A stretch of DNA of 11,991 nt from Candidatus Iainarchaeum sp. GTDB lineage: Archaea; Iainarchaeota; Iainarchaeia; Iainarchaeales; CSSED10-239. Below the pieces are notes generated by a model. The model searched no databases, was not told the DNA's origin, and saw only the letters and a list, made by a program, of their open reading frames with translations. The stretch covers positions 1-11,991 of the forward strand of contig PWLL01000022.1 in the NCBI GenBank assembly GCA_003559395.1, given 5' to 3'. Both the position numbers and the translations under genes were made by a program. Positions within the stretch are counted from its first letter, which is position 1. Each line of letters opens with the position of its first letter. Of this stretch, positions 1-11,991 are shown one piece after another.

Positions 1-172
1 GACATAATCAAAATGGAATCATAACTAACACTTCTACTTCTGGTATTGTTTCTGGTAGTAGCAGAGTTGGCGGTTTAGTTGGACATAATCAAAATGGAAT
101 CATAACTAACACTTCTACTTCTGGTATTGTTTCTGGTAGTAGCAGAGTTGGCGGTTTAGTTGGACATAATCA
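1..172 (+). repeat. Perfect 81-bp (27-codon) tandem direct repeat inside the GLUG CDS: two full copies plus 10 bp of a third
   Basis: nt 1-81 and 82-162 are identical base for base (gacataatcaaaatggaatcataactaacacttctacttctggtattgtttctggtagtagcagagttggcggtttagttg). nt 163-172 repeat the first 10 nt and then diverge (catcatagtg). The unit is in frame and encodes HNQNGIITNTSTSGIVSGSSRVGGLVG. The array touches the window edge, so more copies may lie upstream. Confidence 0.95.
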
Positions 173-728
173 TCATAGTGCTAAAATTTCTTACAGTTTT
201 TCTTTATGTGTTGTTTCCTCTTCAACAACTGAACAATATAGTAATGTTGGTGGGCTGGTTGGTTGGAATAATGGAGATGTTAGTTATAGCTTTGCAACTG
301 GCGATGTCAGTGGAAATAAATTAAACAGTGGTGGTTTAATTGGATACAATGCTCATGCAAAGGTAATTAATAGCTATGCAACTGGTGATGTTTTTGGCTT
401 TTCTAGAGTTGGTGGTTTGATTGGTAGAAATTGGACTAGTTCAAACATAGAAAACAGTTATTCTGTTGGAAAGGTTTCTGGTAATTCAAATGTTGGAGGA
501 TTAATTGGTGATGAAAGTGATTCGCCACGTCCAATTGTTTCTAACAGTTATTGGGATACAGAAACTTCAAAACAAGACACCAGTGCAAAAGGAGAAGGAA
601 AAACAACAGAAGAACTGAAACAACAATCTACTTTTGAAGAATGGGATTTTGATAATGTTTGGGATATTAATGAAACAACAACATACCCTTATTTAAGACA
701 AAATAAACAAACACCTTCCCCACAATAA
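1..728 (+). CDS. GLUG-motif repeat surface/adhesin-like protein, C-terminal fragment (5' end lies outside the window)
   Basis: The frame with codons starting at nt 3 is open from the window edge to TAA at 726-728. The TTG start at 417 in the ORF track is an ORF-caller artefact. The translation gives 27-30 aa repeats each carrying GGLVG/GGLIG (SRVGGLVGHN x2, SNVGGLVGWN, NSGGLIGYN, SRVGGLIGRN, SNVGGLIGDE), which is the GLUG motif. It ends with the module SYWDTETS...FEEWDFDNVWDINETTTYPYL that usually closes such arrays. Confidence 0.75.
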   Translation, partial: HNQNGIITNTSTSGIVSGSSRVGGLVGHNQNGIITNTSTSGIVSGSSRVGGLVGHNHHSAKISYSFSLCVVSSSTTEQYSNVGGLVGWNNGDVSYSFATGDVSGNKLNSGGLIGYNAHAKVINSYATGDVFGFSRVGGLIGRNWTSSNIENSYSVGKVSGNSNVGGLIGDESDSPRPIVSNSYWDTETSKQDTSAKGEGKTTEELKQQSTFEEWDFDNVWDINETTTYPYLRQNKQTPSPQ

Positions 729-733
729 AACAT

Positions 734-1678
734 TTACTTTATAAAAAAATTAATTTTGTGTTCTTTGTTTAAAAAAAGCAAGTTAATATCTTCAATAGTT
801 GAACAAAACAACGTGTTTATTTTGTTTATTTCTTTATAAACGTCTGTTTTGTTATCACTTTCATATTTTATTACAATTTCATATTCTCCTAATATTTTCA
901 TAATAAAAACAACATTTTTTAGGTTTTTAAGATAATCAATTAATTCTTTATTTTTACTATTTTTAAGTTTAAATAAAAAAAGAAAAACATTTTCTTTAAG
1001 ATCCGAAACAACACAATGTCCTAAAATAACACGTAAGTGGTTTAGTTTTTTTATTTTTTCTACAATTATTTCTGGTGTTGTATTATTTATTTTTGCAAGA
1101 TTTATGGTTGCAATTTTAGAGTCATAAGATAGGTTTTTTAGAATATTTAAATCTAGCTCATCTAAATCTTTTTTAGAAATCTTGTTTTTTATAGTTTTTT
1201 CGTATTTTGCATTTCTGTATTTTCTAAATAAATAATCTTTATTAAAAAAAGTTGTATCTATAATCGGAAAAAAACAAAAATTAGAAATAAAATTATAAAA
1301 ATTGTTTTTAATATTGTAAGTAAATTTTAAGATGTCGTCATCATTTTTATATAAAAAAGAAAAAACAAAAGAAAAAGACCCTTGTGTTTCACAAACCCAA
1401 TATGTTTTTTCTTGTTTTATTAGCCATAACAAAAGTTTGTTTTTTTCAAAAACGTTTTTTATTTTTATACAACAAAACAAGCTTTTATATCCTAGTTTAG
1501 TGTAGTCAATAATCGTTATGTATTTTTTTATTATGTTTTCTTTTTCTAAGTTTTGTAGTCTGTAACTAACCACTTGCTGAGAAGTTTTTAAAGTTCTAGA
1601 TATTCTAGACAAGCTTTGTCTTGAATTGTTCTCTAACTCATAGATTATTTTTTTATCTAGTAAGTTTAATGAGTCCAT
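734..1678 (-). CDS. Lrp/AsnC-family transcriptional regulator with two tandem HTH + RAM-like modules in one polypeptide
   Basis: The N-terminus LDKKIIYELENNSRQSLSRISRTLKTSQQVVSYRLQNLEKENIIKKY fits the AsnC-type winged HTH pattern. A second copy lies at about aa 172-220 (LDELDLNILKNLSYDSKIATINLAKINNTTPEIIVEKIKKLNHLRVI). Each is followed by a stretch like an effector (RAM) domain (VCETQGSFSFVFSFLYKNDDDI; MKILGEYEIVIKYESDNKTDV). ATG at 1678, TAA stop at 734-736. Confidence 0.7.
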   Translation of the reverse strand: MDSLNLLDKKIIYELENNSRQSLSRISRTLKTSQQVVSYRLQNLEKENIIKKYITIIDYTKLGYKSLFCCIKIKNVFEKNKLLLWLIKQEKTYWVCETQGSFSFVFSFLYKNDDDILKFTYNIKNNFYNFISNFCFFPIIDTTFFNKDYLFRKYRNAKYEKTIKNKISKKDLDELDLNILKNLSYDSKIATINLAKINNTTPEIIVEKIKKLNHLRVILGHCVVSDLKENVFLFLFKLKNSKNKELIDYLKNLKNVVFIMKILGEYEIVIKYESDNKTDVYKEINKINTLFCSTIEDINLLFLNKEHKINFFIK

Positions 1679-1770: not shown

Positions 1771-3666
1771 CTATAAAGAAAAGAAATCAAAAACTTCCTT
1801 AGAAACATCTCTAGATATTTTTAATCTTAAATCTCTTGGAAAACATTTTCTATAGTTGTCCCAAAGATATCTTCTATCTATAAAAACAACAATCCCTCTA
1901 TCTGTATCTGATCTTATTACTCTTCCTGCACTTTGAATTACTTTTTGCATAGCTGGTTGAATATATGCATACAACCACCCGTTGTTATATTTTTCTTTAT
2001 AATAATCTATTTTATATTTCATCTCTAAAGTCATAACACCTAAAGGAATTCCAACAATCACAGCACACTTAAGATAATCTCCAGGAAGATCGATTCCTTC
2101 AGAAGCCTTTCCGCCCATTACAGCAAACAAAACGCCACCGTAGTTTTTAGAAAGTTTTTTAAAATCAACAATCATTTCTTCAAAATCTCTTGTGCTTTGT
2201 GCTTCTTGTTGTACTAGTGTTTTTTTCATAGTTTTTATATATTCAACAACGTTATTTAGTATTTCAAAAGAAGGAAAAAAAACAATAGAGTTTCCAGGAA
2301 CACTATTAATTGTTTTAGAAACGGAATCTGCAATCAGCTTATATTCTTTTTCAGATCTTTGTGTAAATTTTGTGGTTGTGTTTGTTACTAAAAGATTTAA
2401 TCTTTTTTTTGCATCAAAAGGACACAAATGTTCTTTTAATAAACAATCTGTTTTTTTAAAACCATAAAGTTCTCTGTACATATCTAAAGGAGTTAAAGTT
2501 GCGGACATTAAAACAGAAGAATAAACATTTTCAAAAATTGGTTTAGTTATTGAAGAAATATCTACTGTGTTGTGACAAACATACAACATGCCTTTTTTTT
2601 TAGTTATAAATCTAATTTTTTCTTTTTTATCTACTATCCAATCTTCAAGAAACAAAGCAAGTGAAACTAACGCACTTTTGTGTGATTCATTTTTTTCAAG
2701 ATATTTTATGCCTGTATCTTCAATTTCAGAAATAAAATCAAAAAGATTGTTTTCAATCTCAGGTATTAGGATTTCTTCTTTTTTAAGCACTTCTTCTTTT
2801 TTATTGTTTGTTAGCTTATTTTCTGCAAGTTTTTCAAAACAATCTAATAGTTTTTGAATAATGTTTGCTATGTTTTTTTTACTAATGGTTTTTGCTTCCT
2901 CTATACATCTATGAAGCATAAACGTACTTAGTTTTTTAGAAGCCAGTTTTACTAGTCTTTCTTGAAGGTTGTGTGCTTCATCAACAATAACAATACAATC
3001 AGATAAAGAAACATTTATTTCAGAAAGAACACTGCTTGCAACTTTTCCAGAAAAAACATGATAGTAATCTCCAATAATCAACTTACAGTCTTTAGCAAAC
3101 AACTTTGCAAGTTCATAAGCACATAGTGGTTGTGGTTCGTTGTTATATGATGTGTAGTTTTCTGCAAGAGAAATTATTTGGTGATGAGATAAAACTGTTG
3201 CATCTTTTATATATCCGTTTATTCTTTGTAAAGTAAATTCTTTTTTTATTTTTTCAGGAGGTTTTATATTATTAAAAAAAGGACAACTTCTTTGTTTTAT
3301 CATTTTATTACAAACTTCATAAAACTCAGCACCAGTCTTAGAAGCAACAGGATCAATACACATGTGTTTTTTTCCAACAAAATCAATGGCTTTTAGGTTT
3401 AGATCATATTTTTCATTAATTTCTTTAAGAACTTCAATGGCAATTTTATGTTGAGATGTTTTAGGTGTTAAAAAAAGCACTTTTAGATCATTATCAATAG
3501 CATATCTCATAGCTACAGAAAGAGCAGAATCTGTTTTTCCTGTGCCTGTTGGAGCGTGTAATAGTATGTTTTTCTTTTGACTTATGGTTTCATTAATATC
3601 TTTAATGATTTCTTTTTGGCCTTTTCTAAAGTTGTTGTGTCTAAAGTATATTTTCATTTTTTTCAT
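1771..3666 (-). CDS. xpd: XPD/Rad3-type (DinG-family) superfamily-2 DNA helicase with a 4Fe-4S cluster domain
   Basis: Start region YFRHNNFRKGQ. Motif I LLHAPTGTGKT. Four Cys between motifs I and II (HMCIDP, EVCNKM, RSCPFF, PLCAYE) match the XPD Fe-S domain. DEAH box VIVDEAHNL. Motif VI QSAGRVIRS. The 631-aa length is typical of archaeal XPD. The start could instead be the second ATG at 3657. Confidence 0.85.
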   Translation of the reverse strand: MKKMKIYFRHNNFRKGQKEIIKDINETISQKKNILLHAPTGTGKTDSALSVAMRYAIDNDLKVLFLTPKTSQHKIAIEVLKEINEKYDLNLKAIDFVGKKHMCIDPVASKTGAEFYEVCNKMIKQRSCPFFNNIKPPEKIKKEFTLQRINGYIKDATVLSHHQIISLAENYTSYNNEPQPLCAYELAKLFAKDCKLIIGDYYHVFSGKVASSVLSEINVSLSDCIVIVDEAHNLQERLVKLASKKLSTFMLHRCIEEAKTISKKNIANIIQKLLDCFEKLAENKLTNNKKEEVLKKEEILIPEIENNLFDFISEIEDTGIKYLEKNESHKSALVSLALFLEDWIVDKKEKIRFITKKKGMLYVCHNTVDISSITKPIFENVYSSVLMSATLTPLDMYRELYGFKKTDCLLKEHLCPFDAKKRLNLLVTNTTTKFTQRSEKEYKLIADSVSKTINSVPGNSIVFFPSFEILNNVVEYIKTMKKTLVQQEAQSTRDFEEMIVDFKKLSKNYGGVLFAVMGGKASEGIDLPGDYLKCAVIVGIPLGVMTLEMKYKIDYYKEKYNNGWLYAYIQPAMQKVIQSAGRVIRSDTDRGIVVFIDRRYLWDNYRKCFPRDLRLKISRDVSKEVFDFFSL

Positions 3667-3916
3667 ATTTTTGTTTTATAATAAAATAATATTATGTAAT
3701 ATAAATGTTTTTATAAAAAAGAATTGGTTTTTGTAAAATTGTTTTTGGTTATAAATAACATATTAAGTAAACAATATAAAACCTTTTCGGAAGGTAATGG
3801 CCAGTGCAGAAAAAGACTTTTATAAATCTGTTGTTTTACAAAAATGTTTTTCTTAGTAATTATGTCTTTTTAGATAAAAACAATAAAGTTAAAAAGAAGT
3901 TTTACATATATTTATT

Positions 3917-4711
3917 ATGAACAACAATAAATCTGATACCAAAGGAGTAATTTATTATTTTTCAGGAACAGGTAATTCGTTTTTTGTTTCAAAAGAATAT
4001 GAAAGCTTGTTTGAAGAAAAAAACATAACAGTTGATCTTGTAGATATTGTTGATATAGATGTTGTAAAAAGTCAAGCCAAATATGATTTTTTAATAATTG
4101 CCTTTCCTGTATATGCTTGGATGCCACCAAGAAACGTAACAGATTTTGTAAAAAAACTACCAAATGTTCAAAAAAAGAAAACCTATATCTTAGCAACCTA
4201 TAGACACTTTTCAGGAGGCTCTTTAAAATATTTAAGTAACTTGTTTTTAAAAAAAGGATATGATGTTTGTGGGTTGTTTGAATATCTTATGCCACAAAAC
4301 TTTTTTGTAAAAAAACAAGAAAAACAACAAATCGAAGACCTTATTCAAAAAACTAAAGCCAAAATAAAAAAAGACTTTCAAAAAATTGAATCTGAAGAAA
4401 AACATTTTAAAAAAACATCTTTTTTTGTGTATGTTATGTCTAAGATTGTTTCGTTCTTTTTTAATATATTTATTATTTCTAAAAAAAATTATATAGTAGA
4501 TCATAACAAATGTACTTTTTGTGGGTTGTGTGAACAAGTATGTCCTACAAAAAACATAATTGTTAAAAAAAAGAAAAGAAATGTTATTTTTTTAGACCAT
4601 TGCTTGTTTTGTACAAGATGCTATAATCTTTGTCCAACTAAAGCAATTAATTTTAAAAAAAGTAAAGCAAATTATGTGCGGTATGATTATTTTAAAAAAT
4701 ATTATAAATGA
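3917..4711 (+). CDS. EFR1-like flavodoxin-domain / 2x[4Fe-4S] ferredoxin-domain protein
   Basis: The N-terminal flavodoxin-like signature is GVIYYFSGTGNS. The C-terminus has two CxxCxxCxxxCP motifs (CTFCGLCEQVCP and CLFCTRCYNLCP). A hydrophobic stretch (TSFFVYVMSKIVSFFFNIFIIS) separates the two domains. ATG at 3917, TGA stop at 4709-4711. Confidence 0.7.
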   Translation: MNNNKSDTKGVIYYFSGTGNSFFVSKEYESLFEEKNITVDLVDIVDIDVVKSQAKYDFLIIAFPVYAWMPPRNVTDFVKKLPNVQKKKTYILATYRHFSGGSLKYLSNLFLKKGYDVCGLFEYLMPQNFFVKKQEKQQIEDLIQKTKAKIKKDFQKIESEEKHFKKTSFFVYVMSKIVSFFFNIFIISKKNYIVDHNKCTFCGLCEQVCPTKNIIVKKKKRNVIFLDHCLFCTRCYNLCPTKAINFKKSKANYVRYDYFKKYYK

Positions 4712-4784: not shown

Positions 4785-7187
4785 ATGAAAAATAAAAAAC
4801 TAATCTTGTGGTTTAATGAGATATCAATAGAAGATGTGCCTTTAGTAGGAGGAAAAAACGCGTCTTTAGGAGAAATGTATAGAAACCTTACTAAAAAAGG
4901 AGTAAAAATACCAAATGGCTTTGCAGTAACAGCACACGCCTATAGATACGTTCTTAAAAAAGAAAATGTAAAAGAAAAAATAAGAACAATATTTAAAGAT
5001 CTTAATGTTAACAATATAGAAAACTTAAGCAAAAAAGGAAATGAAGTAAGAAGAATGATAAGACATCTTCCACTACCAAAAGATCTAGAAGAAGAAATAA
5101 TAAAAGCCTATTATCAACTTTCAAAACAAGCAAAAGTTAAAGAAATGGATGTTGCAGTGAGATCATCAGCGACCGCAGAAGACGCACCAGATGCCTCGTT
5201 TGCTGGACAACAAGAAACATATCTTAACATAAAAGGCCCAGAAGATCTTTTAGATGCGTGTAAGAAATGTTTTGCTTCTCTTTTTACAAACAGAGCCATC
5301 TCTTATAGAGAAAGAAACAAATATGACCACTTTGATGCAGCACTATCTATCTGTGTTCAAAGAATGGTCCGAAGTGATCTTGCTTCTTCTGGTGTTTTGT
5401 TTTCTATAGATACAGAAACTGGATTTAAAGATGTTGTATTAATTAATGGAGCCTATGGTTTAGGAGAAAATGTTGTTCAAGGAGCAGTAAACCCAGACGA
5501 GTTTGTTGTTTTTAAACCAACCTTAAAGAAAAACTATAAACCAATCATCTCAAAAAGACTAGGTTCAAAAACAATGAAGATGATCTATAATACAGAAGGA
5601 AATATACCAGTTAAAAATGTTGCAGTAGATCTTACGCATAGAAAACAATTTTGTATAGATGATAATAAAATTCTTAAACTTGCAAAATGGGCAGTTATAA
5701 TAGAAGAATACTATACAAAAAAAGCAAAAACCTATAGACCCATGGATATAGAATGGGCAGTAGATGGAAACACAAACGAGCTTTTTGTTGTTCAAGCAAG
5801 ACCAGAAACCGTTCAATCACAAAGAAAAAGAAACAAATATGTAACTTATAAACTTTTAGAAAAAAAAGAACCTATCTTGCAAGGAATTGCAATTGGTCAA
5901 CAGATTGTTTCTGGAGAAGTTTGTATTATTAAAGATTCAAAAGAAATAAACTCTTTTAAAGAAGGAGCAATACTAGTTACAGAAATAACAGACCCAGACT
6001 GGGAACCAATCATGAAAAAAGCCAAAGCTATAATCACTAACAGAGGTGGAAAAACATGTCATAGTGCTATAGTTGCAAGAGAGATAGGCATTCCTTGCAT
6101 TGTTGGTACAAGCACAGCAACTAAAACATTAAAAGACAAACAAACAATTACGTTAGATTGTTCAAGTGGAGATAGTGGATTTATTTATGATGGAGAAATA
6201 AAGTTTGAAAAACAAGAACAAGATATAAAAAAGATGCCCAAAACAAAAACTAAAATAATGATGAACGTAGGTAATCCAGAAAATGCCTTTGATCTATCTA
6301 CTTTGCCAAACCAAGGTGTTGGTTTAGCTAGAGAAGAATTTATTATTAACTCTTGGATAAAGATACATCCTCTAGCACTGATAAATTATAACAATATAAA
6401 AGACAAACAAGTTAAATGGGAAATAGAAGATTTAACTATTGGTTATAAAGACAAGAAACAATACTTTGTAGATCTTCTATCATACGGTATTGCAAGAATT
6501 GCAGCAGCCTTTTATCCAAAAAAAGTAATCCTAAGGTTATCTGATTTTAAAACAGACGAATATGCAAACCTTATAGGTGGAAAAGAATATGAACCACAAG
6601 AAAGTAATCCTATGATTGGTTGGAGAGGCGCTTCAAGATACTATCAAGGAAACTATAGAAAAGGCTTTAAGCTAGAATGTTTAGCAATAAAAAAAGTAAT
6701 AGATGTGTTTGGTTTAACAAATCTAGAAATAATGGTTCCTTTTTGTAGAACCATAGAAGAAGCAAAAAAAGTTGTTCAAGAAATAAAAAATAACGGACTA
6801 GATAGAAGAAAGCTAAAGATTAACTGTATGTGTGAAGTGCCATCAAATATTGTTCTTGCAGAACAGTTTTTAGATATATTTGATGGATATAGTATAGGAA
6901 GTAACGATCTGACTCAATTAACTCTTGGACTAGATAGAAACTCAGAACTTTTAGCACACATTTATGATGAAAGAAACGAAGCAGTAAAAAAACAAATAAA
7001 ACAAGTTATAAAGATAGCACGAAATAAAAAAAAGTATATTGGAATTTGTGGACAAGCACCTTCTGACTATCCAGAATTTGCAGAATTTTTAGTTAGAGAA
7101 AAGATTGAGTCTATTAGCCTTAATCCAGATACAATTATTCAAACAACTATAGCAATTGCAAAAGTAGAAAAAAAACTTAAAAAATAG
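4785..7187 (+). CDS. ppsA: Phosphoenolpyruvate synthase (pyruvate, water dikinase)
   Basis: The N-terminal ATP-grasp region carries VPLVGGKNASLGEM. The phosphohistidine swivel motif is GGKTCHSAIVAREIGIPCIVG. The C-terminal PEP-utiliser barrel has MCEVPS (catalytic Cys region) and GSNDLTQLTLG. The 800-aa length is typical of PpsA. Confidence 0.95.
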   Translation: MKNKKLILWFNEISIEDVPLVGGKNASLGEMYRNLTKKGVKIPNGFAVTAHAYRYVLKKENVKEKIRTIFKDLNVNNIENLSKKGNEVRRMIRHLPLPKDLEEEIIKAYYQLSKQAKVKEMDVAVRSSATAEDAPDASFAGQQETYLNIKGPEDLLDACKKCFASLFTNRAISYRERNKYDHFDAALSICVQRMVRSDLASSGVLFSIDTETGFKDVVLINGAYGLGENVVQGAVNPDEFVVFKPTLKKNYKPIISKRLGSKTMKMIYNTEGNIPVKNVAVDLTHRKQFCIDDNKILKLAKWAVIIEEYYTKKAKTYRPMDIEWAVDGNTNELFVVQARPETVQSQRKRNKYVTYKLLEKKEPILQGIAIGQQIVSGEVCIIKDSKEINSFKEGAILVTEITDPDWEPIMKKAKAIITNRGGKTCHSAIVAREIGIPCIVGTSTATKTLKDKQTITLDCSSGDSGFIYDGEIKFEKQEQDIKKMPKTKTKIMMNVGNPENAFDLSTLPNQGVGLAREEFIINSWIKIHPLALINYNNIKDKQVKWEIEDLTIGYKDKKQYFVDLLSYGIARIAAAFYPKKVILRLSDFKTDEYANLIGGKEYEPQESNPMIGWRGASRYYQGNYRKGFKLECLAIKKVIDVFGLTNLEIMVPFCRTIEEAKKVVQEIKNNGLDRRKLKINCMCEVPSNIVLAEQFLDIFDGYSIGSNDLTQLTLGLDRNSELLAHIYDERNEAVKKQIKQVIKIARNKKKYIGICGQAPSDYPEFAEFLVREKIESISLNPDTIIQTTIAIAKVEKKLKK

Positions 7188-7293: not shown

Positions 7294-7848
7294 ATGGGAG
7301 TATTATGGATTGTAATAATCATCTTAGCAATAATATTGTTTATTAGCTTTATAATATACAATAGTTTGATAAGAGTAAGAAATAAAGTAAAAAATGCATG
7401 GTCACAAATAGATGTGCAACTTAAAAAAAGATATGATCTTGTACCAAATCTTGTAGATACAGTAAAAGGTTATGTAAAACACGAAAGACAAACACTAGAA
7501 ACAATAACAAACATGAGAACACAAGCAATGCAAGCTAAAAACCCACAAGAAAAAATAAAAGCAAACAACAAGATGTCAAAAGCAATTGGTGGGCTGATTA
7601 ATGTTGTTGTTGAAAACTATCCAGACTTAAAAGCTTCTCAAAACTTTTTGATGTTGCAAGAAGAGTTAAGTGGTATAGAAAACAAAATTGCATACTCTAG
7701 ACAATATTATAACGACTCAATAATGAGATATAATAACAAAATAGAGATGTTTCCAACAAACATGTTTGCAAAAATATTTAATTTTGAGAAAAAAGATTTT
7801 TTAGAAACTGAAGAGAAAGAAAAAGGACCTGTAAAGGTTTCTTTTTAA
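7294..7848 (+). CDS. lemA: LemA-family membrane protein
   Basis: A single N-terminal TM helix (VLWIVIIILAIILFISFIIY) is followed by the characteristic LemA core: YNSLIRVRNKVKNAWSQIDVQLKKRYDLVPNLVDTVKGY...HE, then ENYPDLKASQNF..LQEEL, then R..YN. The 184-aa length fits the family. Confidence 0.9.
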   Translation: MGVLWIVIIILAIILFISFIIYNSLIRVRNKVKNAWSQIDVQLKKRYDLVPNLVDTVKGYVKHERQTLETITNMRTQAMQAKNPQEKIKANNKMSKAIGGLINVVVENYPDLKASQNFLMLQEELSGIENKIAYSRQYYNDSIMRYNNKIEMFPTNMFAKIFNFEKKDFLETEEKEKGPVKVSF

Positions 7849-7864: not shown

Positions 7865-8707
7865 GTGATGAAAATGGTTATGAAAAAAATATTAGTTTTA
7901 TTTATTGTATTGATTGTTAGTTTTATATTTGTAGGAGTTTTAAATACACAAGAAGTTAATGATCTAAACTCTTATGAAGATTTAGAAGGTTATGAAGAAT
8001 ATTTAGATTCAGAAGGAATTGATTATCAAGATTTTGATTCAGAAGACTATGAAGAATATTTAGAGGATTTTGGTTCAGGAGATGTTGATGTTGAAGAAAT
8101 ATTAGACTATATGGAAGAACATGATATTACTTCAGAAGATATTCAAAGATACATGGAAGAACACGATATCTCTCCAGAAGAAGTTCAAAGATATATGGAC
8201 GAATATGGTATAGACTATGAAGATGTTGGTCAAATTGTTGAAGAATACGAAGTAGAAGATGCCTTTGCACAACACATTTCATCAGAACTTATAATGGATA
8301 CTTTTTATCAAAATCTAGGTCTTGTAAAAGAAGGCCTTAATTATATAATAGGAGAAGAAATCGAAATTCCGGGAATCGTATCTTATTTTTATGGAAATAA
8401 AAGTTTTGAGTTGGTTTTAGGAAAAAATGATGGAAACACACATAATGTTTTTTTTGATTTTGAAGATAATTATTTAAAAAACCTTACTCAAGAACAAATA
8501 AGAGAAAAAATAGATATCAGTATATATGTTTCACAAAACGCAATAGATACTGTGTTAGAATCACAAGAAATAAACGATTTTGATGAAATGTTATTAATTA
8601 TACAAGAATTATTTCGAAACAAAGACCTTGACTTTAAGATACATGGGGTTTGGAATAATATTAAATATCAGTTGTTAACCTATTTTAAGTTTTTTATTAC
8701 GATATAA
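7865..8707 (+). CDS. Hypothetical secreted or membrane-anchored protein with a hyper-acidic D/E/Y-rich repeat region
   Basis: Long ORF. Its N-terminus MKKILVLFIVLIVSFIFVGVLNTQ looks like a signal peptide or anchor. The true start is probably one of the ATGs at 7868, 7874 or 7880 rather than GTG 7865. Residues ~35-130 are almost entirely D/E/Y/G/I with internal repeats. The C-terminal ~150 aa have normal composition. I recognise no family. Confidence 0.6.
   Translation: MMKMVMKKILVLFIVLIVSFIFVGVLNTQEVNDLNSYEDLEGYEEYLDSEGIDYQDFDSEDYEEYLEDFGSGDVDVEEILDYMEEHDITSEDIQRYMEEHDISPEEVQRYMDEYGIDYEDVGQIVEEYEVEDAFAQHISSELIMDTFYQNLGLVKEGLNYIIGEEIEIPGIVSYFYGNKSFELVLGKNDGNTHNVFFDFEDNYLKNLTQEQIREKIDISIYVSQNAIDTVLESQEINDFDEMLLIIQELFRNKDLDFKIHGVWNNIKYQLLTYFKFFITI
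8108..8233 (+). repeat. Three imperfect in-frame 42-bp (14-aa) tandem repeats in the acidic protein
   Basis: YMEEHDITSEDIQR (8108-8149), YMEEHDISPEEVQR (8150-8191) and YMDEYGIDYEDVGQ (8192-8233). A looser upstream pair is YEEYLDSEG / YEEYLEDFG. Confidence 0.8.
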
Positions 8708-8770: not shown

Positions 8771-9463
8771 ATGAGAAATATGGTAGAACAAAGTAATAAA
8801 TTATTGAAAATGTTTGAAGGAATAAACAAAAACTTATATAGATCAAATAAGATTGTAGAACTATATAAACCCTTAAACGAAATACTGTTTGCACTAAACC
8901 AAGACTTAGATCAGTTAATAATTACAGACAAAAAAGAACCACACCTACACGAGCAAATAGAAAAAGAAATAAAAAAAAGAGGATTGATTTCTTTATATAA
9001 AAAAATGGATGAAACCATTTGTAATCTAAAAGAAGAAATAGACTATTTTTATGATCAAATACATAGAGGAGAAGAAATTTTTGAAAAATTTAGAAACTAT
9101 AGAACCTATGTTTTTGAAAATCCAAACAAATCTAAAGAATATTTAGATAAATTAATAAATATATTTAATATTGATAAATTTGTTTTAAAATTTAATGTGG
9201 TTGGAACAATAGACCTTTCAGAAGTAGCAAAGCTTATTAAAGGACAAAAACAAGGAATAAACATTGTGCTTCCTTCAGAAAACGTATCATTAATATACGA
9301 AGAAATACTAAAATCAAAACCAATAAAGTTTAGAATTGTTTATGGGCCTTTAGCCATCTATTTTGAAAAAGATAACGTGCTTTATATAGAAGCACCTAGT
9401 AAGAAAATAGAACTTTGTGATTCAACAGCAAAAGAATTTAATGCAAAACTACTAGACAATTAA
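8771..9463 (+). CDS. Hypothetical protein, 230 aa, no recognisable family
   Basis: Uninterrupted 693-nt ORF, co-directional with lemA and the acidic protein. There is no obvious SD. A TATA-like tttaaata at 8733-8740 sits about 31-38 nt upstream of the ATG, which would fit a near-leaderless transcript. The N-terminal half is helical and charged, and the C-terminal half alternates hydrophobic and polar residues (alpha/beta-like). The TAA stop at 9461-9463 overlaps the stop of the convergent ATPase gene. Confidence 0.55.
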   Translation: MRNMVEQSNKLLKMFEGINKNLYRSNKIVELYKPLNEILFALNQDLDQLIITDKKEPHLHEQIEKEIKKRGLISLYKKMDETICNLKEEIDYFYDQIHRGEEIFEKFRNYRTYVFENPNKSKEYLDKLINIFNIDKFVLKFNVVGTIDLSEVAKLIKGQKQGINIVLPSENVSLIYEEILKSKPIKFRIVYGPLAIYFEKDNVLYIEAPSKKIELCDSTAKEFNAKLLDN

Positions 9464-11991
9464 TCTAAAAAAACATTTGCTGTTTTTCCTCCATCCCATG
9501 TTTCTCTTGGTCTTATTTTAATAAGCATTACTTTTTCTGCATTATCATCAACTAAAATTGCAAAACCTTTTGATTTTGGCATCTGTGCATAAAATTTATC
9601 CATTGGTACGTTCAAATAACTTGGTCTTATTGTAGAAACCGCTTGAATATCCTCTTGAGCAGTCATTCTCATACTTAAGAAAAAATCACATTGACTTATG
9701 GCTTCAGAATGAAGCTTGTTTGGTCTTTGAGTTGCTAACAATAAAGACAAACCAGGTTGCCTTCCAACACGAATCCACTGTAAAAGAACATCAAGGGCCA
9801 TAGAGGGTCTATCTTGTGGCATAAACATGTGTGCTTCGTCAATCATCATCCAGATTATGGGCATCTCACTGCTCTTTTCTCTTCCTTCAACAAGATTGAT
9901 TTCTTCTTCTTTTCTATATAACATTCTTTCTTCATATAATCTTTTGCCAAGAATACCTACTACAAGTTCTTGAACAGACTCCATTCCAATAGACTGTTTA
10001 TAAGTAGACACATCTATTGTCGTTATGGTTCCAGGTTTAGCAAACTCTTTCATTGTTGTTCCAGATTTAGAAAAAAGACCCCATGTTTTTGCAACCTTTA
10101 ATCTGTTTATTAGTGCGTTTTTAATATCTTGGATTGTATCTTCGTCCTTTAAAGATACAGAAACAATATCATCTACATCATAAAAATTACCAAGCTTTTT
10201 TTTGAGTTTTTCTAAAGTTCTTGACAAAAGAGCTGCTTCAGGTTCTTTCCAAGATAATCTAAAAACAGCCAACCAATCTTCAAGATCAATCTGTGAAGTC
10301 TTTATTGAAAAAGAACTATCAAAAGGAATGTTTTTATCCTTATAAAACTCTTTTTTTCCTTCAGGAATAAGGTTTCTTACTTTAATTCCTTCAGGTTTTA
10401 TGTTCCAATCATCACATAGTTTTTGAGAAAGTTCTTCATTTTTGTATTTCATGGTCCAAAAGATTCCAACAGTATCTATAATGATTGCAGATAATCTTTC
10501 TCTAATTTCAAAAGGTTGTTTAGCAAACTCTTCAATAAGCACTGACATAGTGTAGCTATTGTGAACAATAATATTATTTGCAATAAAATTGTGTTCTTTA
10601 GGTACTGTAATATCATAAACTTCTTGTTTTTTATTTATTTTTTTAATTTTTTTAATTTCGTCCCAAAATATATCGCTTGTTGCTATTTTTTTTATGTTTT
10701 CATTATTATCATTTATTGCTATTTTTTCTAGTTTTTCTCTTGATGGTGAATAATTTATTGAAGATCTTAATGATTTTGGTGTTTTGTAGTTAAAAGCTTT
10801 ACCTACTGCACTCCAGTTTTTAGGCCTATAAATATCCCAAATGTCTTTAGGTATGGTATCTATATTAGGGTTGTTTTTTTTAAATTTTATATTTTTGGTT
10901 TTATTTTCTTTTTTACCAAAAAAACCAATTTCTTTTATATATGTGGGTATTTGTGAACTTATGATGTTAAGTTCATAGTTCAATAATCTTTTTGTTTTTT
11001 TTGTTCTTATTATCGAAATGATTCCAAATCTAAGAAGCAATCCTTGTACTTGTAAAATTAATTTTTTAGATGATGATGAGTAAGAGATGATATGTTGTTT
11101 TTTATTGTTGTCAAAATATATTGTTGCATCGCAAGAAAATAATCTATTTAAAAAAAGAGCTAGGTTTTTTTTAGATAACATAAATATTGTATTAGGAATA
11201 AATTTGGTTTCAGATTTGTGATTATATAATTGTATTTCCTCTAAATATTTTCTTAAAGAATTTCTTCTATCTAAAATTTTGTTTTTGGTGATTTGTTTTA
11301 CTTTATTTTTATCTGTTTTTGTTTTTTCGCCAATTATTCTATAATCACTAGGCCCATGGTTTTTGATTATGAGTCGTTTATCAAAATTAAACACAGCTTT
11401 TTTAAAATCATCAACTATCTTTTTATCTTTGTTAGAGAATAAAATAAATCTATTTTTTAAACACCCCTCTGCAATAAGATATGCCAGTAATTTAATTTCA
11501 TAAGTTTGCATTTTTTTAGAACCAAAAAAAGGAATTGTTCGTGGTGTTGCAATTCTACTCCCTTTTTTTAAATTTTCTGCATTTTTCCATCCATTAATGG
11601 TTAATAAAGGATGTTCTGGTGTTAAATTTATTTTCTTTCCAGTTCTTAAAGTTATTTCTAAAGTTTTGTTTATCGTTCTTTTATAAAATTTTTCTTTTTT
11701 TGTAGATATTATTTTTTGTTCTTTATTTAATGAAATTATTTTTTTATTTTCTTTTTCTAGATCTTTAATAGGAATTTCTCTACCATCTTCCAAAGTAATT
11801 AATGTATCTCCACAAAGACATTTGCCACCCCCTCTTTTTCCGCAAACAATTGCAACATGTGATCTAGAAACATCCATTAATACTTTTTTTCCAAGAACTG
11901 GTTCTTCTCCACTAGAAACAACAACTTTGCCTATATATCCAGTAGCCTTATCACCATATTTTTTTAAATCACCTAAAGTTCTTCCAACAAC
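9460..11991 (-). CDS. HerA-like FtsK/HerA-superfamily ATPase (HAS-barrel + DUF87-type P-loop domain) interrupted by an intein; 5' end outside the window
   Basis: The minus-strand frame stays open from 11877 to the window edge. It reads VVGRTLGDLKKYGDKATGYIGKVVVSSGEEPVLGKKVLMDVSRSHVAIVCGKRGGGK, so the ATG at 11877 is internal. After removing aa 20-440 of the track ORF, the Walker A reads GKRGGGK-SYTMSVLIEEF. The Walker B is PIIWMMIDEAHMFMP. The C-terminal LLLATQRP..L....ISQC and IRPRETWDGG are HerA/COG0433-like. Stop at 9460-9462. Confidence 0.85.
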   Translation of the reverse strand, partial: VVGRTLGDLKKYGDKATGYIGKVVVSSGEEPVLGKKVLMDVSRSHVAIVCGKRGGGKCLCGDTLITLEDGREIPIKDLEKENKKIISLNKEQKIISTKKEKFYKRTINKTLEITLRTGKKINLTPEHPLLTINGWKNAENLKKGSRIATPRTIPFFGSKKMQTYEIKLLAYLIAEGCLKNRFILFSNKDKKIVDDFKKAVFNFDKRLIIKNHGPSDYRIIGEKTKTDKNKVKQITKNKILDRRNSLRKYLEEIQLYNHKSETKFIPNTIFMLSKKNLALFLNRLFSCDATIYFDNNKKQHIISYSSSSKKLILQVQGLLLRFGIISIIRTKKTKRLLNYELNIISSQIPTYIKEIGFFGKKENKTKNIKFKKNNPNIDTIPKDIWDIYRPKNWSAVGKAFNYKTPKSLRSSINYSPSREKLEKIAINDNNENIKKIATSDIFWDEIKKIKKINKKQEVYDITVPKEHNFIANNIIVHNSYTMSVLIEEFAKQPFEIRERLSAIIIDTVGIFWTMKYKNEELSQKLCDDWNIKPEGIKVRNLIPEGKKEFYKDKNIPFDSSFSIKTSQIDLEDWLAVFRLSWKEPEAALLSRTLEKLKKKLGNFYDVDDIVSVSLKDEDTIQDIKNALINRLKVAKTWGLFSKSGTTMKEFAKPGTITTIDVSTYKQSIGMESVQELVVGILGKRLYEERMLYRKEEEINLVEGREKSSEMPIIWMMIDEAHMFMPQDRPSMALDVLLQWIRVGRQPGLSLLLATQRPNKLHSEAISQCDFFLSMRMTAQEDIQAVSTIRPSYLNVPMDKFYAQMPKSKGFAILVDDNAEKVMLIKIRPRETWDGGKTANVFLD
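10558..11820 (-). mobile_element. Full-length intein (421 aa; Hint splicing domain + LAGLIDADG homing endonuclease) inserted in the Walker-A loop
   Basis: Block A CLCGDTLITLEDG begins at Cys (11818-11820), right after GGGK. Block B is LTPEHPLLT (TxxH). LAGLIDADG motifs are LLAYLIAEGC and LALFLNRLFSCDAT, plus LILQVQGLLLRFGIIS. Block F is VYDITVPKEHNFIANN. Block G is IIVHN, ending at 10558-10560, followed by the +1 Ser (10555-10557) of SYT. The length is 1263 nt, exactly 421 codons. Confidence 0.85.

Follow-up and report, generated by a model that had tools for sequence, protein, structure and literature searches.

A predicted class-1 intein with a two-motif LAGLIDADG endonuclease in the Walker A P-loop of a compact HerA-like ATPase from a DPANN archaeon

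Introduction

The position between the lysine and the serine or threonine of the Walker A motif is the 'classic' point of intein insertion in P-loop ATPases (PMC5050341), and a survey of such inteins describes P-loop hotspots in DnaB, MCM and RFC (PMC4760082). That P-loops are intein hotspots had also been stated in a preliminary description of the locus reported here. Two described systems are among the closest. The intein of the V-ATPase A subunit of Thermococcus litoralis, TliVMA, combines a HINT domain, a double-motif LAGLIDADG endonuclease and an accessory domain resembling a helix-turn-helix, and its nuclease is experimentally active (PMC8966425). The RadA intein of Pyrococcus horikoshii (Pho) disrupts the ATPase until it has been spliced out, in a reaction that depends on conditions (PMC4513877; PMC6195587).

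Here we analyze a 421-residue segment that interrupts the P-loop of a HerA-like ATPase in contig PWLL01000022.1 of Candidatus Iainarchaeum sp.; the window, i.e., the whole stretch of DNA that was analyzed, comprises 11,991 nucleotides. The explanation that we favor, with high confidence, is that the segment is a canonical class-1, endonuclease-bearing intein at the Walker A Lys-Ser position (GKRGGGK↓S, where the arrow marks the insertion point, here and below) of a compact HerA-clade ATPase, whose source is a low-GC relative of Iainarchaeota among the DPANN archaea; that it splices; and that its family spreads by homing.

Results

An insertion of 421 residues between the Walker A lysine and serine

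The ATPase is encoded in a minus-strand frame that runs from position 9460 past the right end of the window and holds 843 codons plus a stop. This frame of 2532 nucleotides is open throughout, in DNA of 27% G+C content (GC). The gene is thus incomplete in the window, and 10 further N-terminal codons lie beyond position 11991; the 805-residue open reading frame that was listed with an ATG start begins at an internal methionine. The missing start, MVVNLSEKDL, is supplied by the JGI contig SL_3KL_010_SEDDRAFT_10009682 (hereafter L001), whose DNA is 100% identical to that of the window over all 2532 shared bases. Because L001 adds these 10 codons, the full precursor has 853 residues and the mature protein 432. 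An identical precursor is found in the database as entry P0121.

Translation of positions 10558 to 11820 on the minus strand gives exactly 421 residues, CLCGDT...NIIVHN, flanked by VAIVCGKRGGGK before and SYTMSVLIEEFA after. The position and length of the insertion in the preliminary description, with its Cys start and His-Asn end, are therefore exact, and so is the homing-site string predicted there, which equals the actual junction DNA. On the coding strand, the predicted intein-free homing site reads TGCGGAAAAAGAGGGGGTGGCAAA↓AGCTACACTATGTCAGTGCTTATT. In silico deletion of the 421-residue segment restores the P-loop GKRGGGKS. The gene is divided as follows:

11821 to 11991, minus strand: N-extein of the HerA-like ATPase (partial), from the translation; the Walker A sequence GKRGGGK at 11821-11841 is its end
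10558 to 11820, minus strand: predicted complete class-1 intein of 421 residues, with HINT domain, LAGLIDADG endonuclease and helical accessory module (profiles, AlphaFold2 model, Foldseek)
9460 to 10557, minus strand: C-extein of the HerA-like ATPase, including the stop codon (translation; matches to HerA in the PDB)
10555 to 10557, minus strand: +1 Ser, predicted to be splicing nucleophile and Walker A Ser in one

Intein-bearing and intein-free homologues

Two sets of homologues were compared, each consisting of the best 120 listed and chosen by similarity to the query. With the spliced protein as query, thousands of homologues were found. The best 120 intein-free homologues are about 431 residues long and up to 87% identical, and the spliced protein aligns with them without a gap through the P-loop (CGKRGGGKSY), as had been anticipated. 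The absence of any gap at this point in the listed intein-free homologues shows that the segment was inserted and is no domain of the host. The extein-only query listed only intein-free proteins despite the existence of an identical intein-bearing protein, and this list was therefore not read as evidence that the intein is rare. In a DNA alignment with the nearest intein-free allele the large indel is clear and its edges are misplaced; the protein alignment was used instead.

With the whole precursor as query, at least 120 further clusters (at 90% identity) were found, with proteins of 780-1314 residues and an intein at the identical site. The insertions in the listed intein-bearing clusters span 349-441 residues and follow the pattern GKRGxGK↓C...HN↓S(Y/F/H). 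In all 120 listed inteins C1, T67, H70, D403, N411, H420, N421 and the +1 Ser are invariant, and H410 is present in 119. As read from this alignment, the invariant set is the full residue complement of a class-1 intein, and the intein is almost certainly splicing-competent.

The preliminary description had left it undecided whether a HerA-family insertion at this site is catalogued. In databases it is, in the at least 120 clusters mentioned above, under generic names such as 'LAGLIDADG family homing endonuclease' or 'intein/homing endonuclease'. A paper describing it was not found: a full-text literature search returned no publication on such an intein in HerA, in DUF87 proteins or in DPANN archaea, and HerA/DUF87 is absent from the main text of the P-loop intein survey (PMC4760082). 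The insertion is thus already common in databases, and the host allele is apparently undescribed in the literature.

Sequence profiles and fold of the intein

The Pfam model Intein_splicing (PF14890) matches residues 8-421 of the segment with E = 2.4e-33 and 115.5 bits, against a cut-off of 35.8, and the match spans the complete model (positions 1-155). The NCBIfam models of intein N- and C-terminal regions score 50.6 bits (TIGR01445; cut-off 24.5) and 32.2 bits (TIGR01443; cut-off 15.6), respectively. LAGLIDADG_3 (PF14528) matches residues 220-298, i.e., domain 2 of the nuclease only, with E = 6e-16 and 58.9 bits against a cut-off of 22.5; the Pfam search of the intein gave no separate match for nuclease domain 1. 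The Hint and LAGLIDADG assignments made earlier are thus borne out by strong matches, far beyond chance and above curated cut-offs. The best full-length NCBIfam match (256.6 bits) is that to PRK07773, a model of intein-containing DnaB, within its intein part. In a search of PDB sequences the HINT halves are nearest to the Npu and Ssp DnaB mini-inteins (E = 1.6e-20), and a C-terminal run of 38 residues is near-identical to that of the Npu DnaB intein (DIFWDEIKKI...VYDITVPKEHNFIANNIIVHN here, DIYWDEIVSI...VFDLTVPGLHNFVANNIIVHN in Npu).

A structural model of the intein was built with AlphaFold2 from 61 family sequences (predicted local distance difference test, pLDDT, 93.6; predicted template modeling score, pTM, 0.92). 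Its best match in a Foldseek search of the PDB is TliVMA (7qss; template modeling score, TM, 0.71; E = 2.6e-27), followed by PhoVMA, PI-PfuI, PI-TkoII and PI-SceI, which are likewise known inteins with an endonuclease. The HINT part matches mini-inteins with a root-mean-square deviation of 1.2-2 Å over about 100 residues, and the nuclease part matches I-DmoI, I-OnuI and I-Tsp061I. In the model the nuclease consists of a helix-strand-strand-helix-strand-strand unit that is present twice, in a pseudo-dimeric alpha-beta fold. The parts of the intein are:

11521 to 11820, minus strand: HINT N-terminal half, intein residues 1-100; rich in beta-strands in the AlphaFold2 model and matched by the N-terminal half of the Npu and Ssp DnaB mini-inteins
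11803 to 11820, minus strand: block A, CLCGDT, with Cys1 (codon TGT at 11818-11820)
11611 to 11622, minus strand: block B, TPEH, intein residues 67-70 (T67 and H70 in 120 of 120 listed inteins)
10921 to 11520, minus strand: two-domain LAGLIDADG homing endonuclease, intein residues about 101-300 (profile, model, Foldseek)
11461 to 11493, minus strand: LAGLIDADG motif 1, KLLAYLIAEGC, intein residues 110-120, with predicted catalytic E118
Intein residues about 161-190, minus strand: variable loop in the nuclease, of low confidence in the AlphaFold2 model
11122 to 11157, minus strand: LAGLIDADG motif 2, LFLNRLFSCDAT, intein residues 222-233, with predicted catalytic D231
10681 to 10920, minus strand: helical accessory module, intein residues about 301-380, with six helices at high pLDDT
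10717 to 10872, minus strand: core of the accessory module, NPNIDTIPKDIW...YSPSREKLEKIA
10558 to 10680, minus strand: HINT C-terminal part, intein residues 381-421 (TIGR01443 match; run shared with the C-terminal half of the Npu DnaB intein)
10576 to 10620, minus strand: block F, VYDITVPKEHNFIAN
10558 to 10575, minus strand: block G, NIIVHN

All Hint blocks that had been read from the sequence, A, B (with its TxxH), F and G, could be located in the translation, and both LAGLIDADG acids are indeed kept, E118 in LIAEG and D231 in SCDA; they are conserved in 113 and 112 of the 120 listed inteins, respectively. The accessory module is probably a helix-turn-helix DNA-binding domain, because TliVMA, the best structural match, has a helix-turn-helix accessory domain in the equivalent place. 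The N-terminus of the intein reads Cys-Leu-Cys (11812-11820, minus strand), and another Cys stands at extein position -8. Among the relatives listed, Cys3 is seen only in P0149 besides this copy; position 3 is mostly T, H, D, S or A.

With these data the segment can also be weighed as something other than an intein, i.e., as a host domain peculiar to this lineage, a chimeric assembly or an insertion that has decayed to a pseudogene. The sole point in favor of such a reading is the truncation of the gene by the end of the window. The open frame and the invariant splicing residues speak against it, and it is refuted by the strong profile matches, the gapless intein-free homologues, the identical DNA in the independent contig L001 and the fold matches. 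Its probability is, in our view, negligible.

The host is a compact ATPase with a HerA-like fold

The spliced protein matches Pfam DUF87 (PF01935), the HerA central domain, with 44.2 bits against a cut-off of 23.2. Sequence and profile matches in the PDB, which cover the half of the protein from Walker B to the C-terminus, are nearly all HerA or HerA-like ATPases (including 8wiv and 8xau). An AlphaFold2 model of P0001, an intein-free homologue of 87% identity, has a pLDDT of 87, and its top 50 Foldseek matches in the PDB are all HerA, with TM up to 0.66; they include T. kodakarensis HerA-NurA and S. solfataricus HerA (TM 0.66). The earlier view of the host as HerA-like is therefore upheld by the family profile, by PDB sequence matches and by the fold. 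The HerA motifs present are GKRGGGKS, after in silico splicing, and two in the C-extein:

9829 to 9852, minus strand: Walker B, WMMIDEAH
9721 to 9768, minus strand: conserved VGRQPGLSLLLATQRP

The protein scores far below the HerA equivalog cut-offs of NCBIfam, which range over 800-970 bits; its best scores are 53.9 bits (cut-off 850) and 44.6 bits (cut-off 970). About 60 residues precede Walker A, versus about 145-170 in the HerA chains 8xau and 8wiv, and the model of P0001 shows a few short strands in the N-terminal region before the P-loop, the place of the HAS-barrel domain in HerA. A NurA partner was not found among the immediate neighbors of the gene. We conclude that the host is HerA-like at the level of fold and superfamily and is no equivalog of the repair or antiphage HerA.

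Two of the precursors listed, P0212 (1302 residues) and P0219 (1314 residues), contain a second intein of 442-447 residues after the Asp-Glu of Walker B (...IDE↓CLPY...VHN↓CHE...), besides the P-loop intein. Inteins thus enter this ATPase family at two sites or more, and the two seen here both lie in nucleotide-binding motifs. In the window the equivalent of the second site lies just after WMMIDE of the Walker B sequence at 9829-9852 (minus strand).

Distribution and mobility of the intein family

The intein-bearing alleles in the listed clusters bear the source names Diapherotrites/Iainarchaeota, Candidatus ainarchaeum, Micrarchaeota, Woesearchaeota, Nanoarchaeota and Aenigmarchaeota. When one genome per GTDB species was scanned, 18 genomes proved to have the same insertion; among them are Pacearchaeota and the single-cell genome of Candidatus Iainarchaeum andersonii SCGC AAA011-E11. 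On a neighbor-joining tree of 234 exteins, 118 with the intein and 116 without, its presence and absence imply at least 37 gains or losses, and the nearest neighbors of the window gene are of both states.

The similarity of the inteins does not follow that of their hosts. P0121, P0132 and P0151 have the closest exteins; these hosts are 85-89% identical to one another, whereas their inteins are only 45-57% identical, a mismatch which indicates that, within a narrow host clade, the intein invaded more than once independently or was replaced. Relative to the window, extein and intein identities are 88.7% and 57.0% for P0132, 87.7% and 54.2% for P0151, and 79.6% and 71.7% for P0125. Intein identity exceeds extein identity in 3627 of 6903 pairs (in one example, 57% and 36%, respectively). 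Mean pairwise identities are 53% for the intein, 51% for the extein, 46-52% for the nuclease domains and 54.5% for the accessory module.

Taken together, the patchy presence, the discordance between intein and host similarity, and an endonuclease as conserved as the host lead us to conclude that the intein family has been mobile. Decayed members also occur: E118 or D231 is replaced in 7-8 of 120, and P0151, P0226, P0233 and P0138 have deletions in the nuclease or accessory region. Such decay is what a homing cycle predicts, and the pattern as a whole, as judged from these comparisons, appears to be that of such a cycle, in which invasion, decay and loss have recurred. The clearest sign of very recent transfer would be near-identical inteins in divergent hosts, and none were seen among the family members compared.

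Library-wide, 7588 relatives of the intein were found. The closest relatives outside the host family lie, for the most part, in other ATPases, at the equivalent point of Walker A: at GARGSGK↓SY in larger proteins whose C-terminal region resembles that of HerA, at AARPSMGK↓T, the DnaB-b P-loop, and at many other sites of the form xxxGK↓S/T. Other relatives are at the DnaB-a site, RESG↓SIEQD. Viral contigs contain only distant relatives of the intein (26-29% identity), and with relatives no closer than these, the search gave no evidence of a viral vector for the DPANN family. One of the relatives, 29% identical, is found at 3001-4200 of a viral contig (L007; IMG/VR UViG_3300018080_000224), at a Walker A-like site, ...CGRRFGK↓C...HN↓T....

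Is the endonuclease of this copy still active?

In this copy of the intein, each of the two catalytic acids is directly followed by a substitution, so that EGH has become EGC and CDG has become CDA. H120C (11461-11463) and G232A (11125-11127) are both unique to this copy among the 120 listed inteins, of which 112 have His and 117 have Gly at these positions. Because the two changes adjoin both catalytic acids, the cutting activity of this copy is uncertain. Overall, the 112 highly conserved columns of the alignment show only 3 deviations in this copy, which is the family median; this copy is therefore not generally decayed, and its nuclease may or may not still cut. The earlier suggestion that homing could still be active is, in sum, plausible for the family, and for this particular copy it is made uncertain by C120 and A232.

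A number of observations weigh against the explanation that we favor. H120C and G232A could weaken the nuclease and may mark early decay. The exact 24-mer of the empty site has 0 matches in metagenome contigs; a codon-degenerate search for CGKRGGGKSYTMSV returned only 7 loci, all at least 10 of 48 nucleotides away from the predicted homing site; and in the closest intein-free relative 15 of the 48 nucleotides are different. The host-like GC at third codon positions (GC3) makes it unlikely that the intein came very recently from a donor of different composition. The figures on mobility come from two similarity-selected samples and from a neighbor-joining distance tree without support values.

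The empty sites that were found differ from the predicted one by 10-16 of 48 nucleotides, mostly at wobble positions; that is, the intein-free allele with a matching junction that the preliminary description had proposed to seek in metagenomes was not found. As to composition, the intein has 23% GC and the extein 33%, and GC3 is 0.14 in the intein and 0.16-0.22 in other genes. Compositional foreignness of the intein was considered and rejected, given how close these GC3 values are.

These observations bear directly on a rival explanation, namely that the intein splices but is a fixed, vertically inherited passenger in a late phase of the homing cycle, with a homing endonuclease that is inactive or decaying. 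Selection would then act on splicing alone, since the ATPase of the host depends on its P-loop. This rival is a serious one, and we would put its chances somewhat short of even. The singleton changes next to both catalytic acids, the lack of a cognate empty site, the full amelioration of the intein to the composition of the host genome and the clear decay in other members (the replaced acids and the four deletions) are all as it would have them, and PhoVMA, with an endonuclease that looks intact and is inactive, provides a precedent (PMC8966425). It is harder to reconcile with the retention of both acids, with a full-length nuclease that has neither frameshift nor deletion, with a number of deviations at the family median, or with a nuclease model that is confident throughout bar one variable loop.

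A further alternative is that the intein is kept as a beneficial post-translational switch whose splicing, and with it activation of the ATPase, responds to conditions such as redox or metal. Across DPANN phyla, conservation of the intein family equals or exceeds that of its host, and its position in the nucleotide-binding loop is one where an intein should block activity. The P-loop inteins of Pho RadA (PMC4513877) and Mycobacterium smegmatis DnaBi1 (PMC6195587) are precedents, and disulfides are possible in principle within the C1-x-C3 pair and the extein Cys at -8. However, many close relatives, up to 87% identical, lack the intein, which is therefore dispensable; Cys3 occurs in only one other listed family member; and conservation of the nuclease and accessory module is better explained by selection for mobility than by regulation. 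We regard the switch as quite improbable. A redox role of the C1-x-C3 pair was set aside, as Cys3 is poorly conserved in the family.

Neighboring genes

Upstream of the ATPase gene and beyond window position 11991, L001 encodes a strongly hydrophobic, polytopic membrane protein of 228 residues (L001 3967-4653, plus strand). Its gene ends 6 nucleotides before the ATPase start, has no Pfam or NCBIfam match, and is kept beside both intein-bearing and intein-free alleles (contigs L002 and L004-L006). This conserved neighbor points to a HerA-type machine associated with the membrane, rather than to a repair pair of HerA and NurA. Other genes of the window are:

8771 to 9463, plus strand: 230-residue protein, convergent with the ATPase and overlapping its stop by 4 nucleotides; no significant family match; kept beside the ATPase in related contigs
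7865 to 8707, plus strand: 280-residue protein; no significant family match
7294 to 7848, plus strand: LemA-family protein
4785 to 7187, plus strand: phosphoenolpyruvate synthase; no intein-family match
3917 to 4711, plus strand: EFR1-family flavodoxin-like ferredoxin
1771 to 3666, minus strand: XPD/Rad3-type helicase
734 to 1678, minus strand: two tandem Lrp/AsnC-type units, 314 residues; HTH_AsnC at residues 7-45, matches to the second unit from about residue 165

The gene at 734-1678 (minus strand) is very AT-rich, with 21% GC, and looks like a fused double regulator. The neighbors are consistent with a cellular DPANN chromosome and not with a virus or plasmid; no tRNA or Rfam features were found in the window.

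Discussion

Under the explanation that we favor, translation would give an 853-residue precursor in which 421 residues interrupt the P-loop. By analogy with described P-loop inteins, this precursor would lack ATPase activity, so that activity would be conditional on splicing, as the preliminary description had also proposed; the sequence leads us to expect that this copy does splice. The HINT domain would catalyze an acyl shift at Cys1, followed by transesterification to Ser+1, cyclisation of Asn421 with assistance from His420, and a final acyl rearrangement. The product would be a 432-residue ATPase with GKRGGGKS intact, in which Ser+1 is reused as the Mg2+-coordinating residue of Walker A. 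The two-motif LAGLIDADG nuclease, together with the accessory module resembling a helix-turn-helix, would cut the P-loop codons of alleles without the intein, which would acquire a copy of it during repair.

A broader reading would join the distribution of the family with the gene neighborhood. In that reading the lineage is highly successful and still moving between DPANN phyla, possibly via episymbiont cell contacts; it is part of a clade specialized for Lys-Ser/Thr sites that can jump from one P-loop ATPase to another without homology between them (HerA of the compact and the large form, DnaB-b and many more); and the host is a previously uncharacterized, DPANN-wide, membrane-partnered HerA-type translocase gated by splicing. 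As a joint claim we consider this unlikely.

The findings leave the current understanding of intein function unchanged. Their value lies first in annotation: in hundreds of database entries this ATPase bears no label but 'LAGLIDADG family homing endonuclease' or 'hypothetical', and such labels hide a conserved HerA-clade ATPase across DPANN archaea. Once the intein is recognized, the true product of the gene and its mature size of 432 residues become apparent. In addition, a HerA-clade host joins the P-loop ATPases that are invaded at the classic Lys-Ser/Thr position, and the alleles of the family, in which the intein is full, degenerate or absent, form a large natural series for the study of the homing cycle in uncultivated, genome-reduced archaea. 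Two parts of the intein may be of use as tools: the HINT domain, which is compact, confidently modeled and similar to the DnaB mini-inteins in wide use, and the nuclease, whose target of 40-50 base pairs can be predicted.

Among the known systems, TliVMA (VMA-b, 7qss) is the best structural match and shares the Walker A P-loop site. It differs in that its sequence identity to the present intein is about 20%, its host is a V-type ATPase, and it belongs to Thermococcales rather than DPANN. The closest characterized sequences are instead the DnaB inteins (4o1r, 1mi8, PRK07773; sites DnaB-a and DnaB-b), although their hosts are bacterial replicative helicases and the crystallized forms are mini-inteins without a nuclease. 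The RadA intein of P. horikoshii is likewise archaeal, lies in the ATPase domain of RadA and is inserted in the P-loop according to PMC6195587; unlike the present intein, to which it has only weak sequence similarity, it is a mini-intein without a nuclease. M. smegmatis DnaBi1 is also a P-loop intein, of class 3 (PMC6195587), whereas the present intein is predicted to be of class 1. Finally, MCM-a, RFC-S-a, DnaB-b and the mycobacteriophage TerL1-a share the Lys-Ser/Thr site and the doubling of roles by the +1 residue (PMC5050341; PMC4760082); what sets the present case apart from these is its host, a compact HerA-clade ATPase of DPANN archaea.

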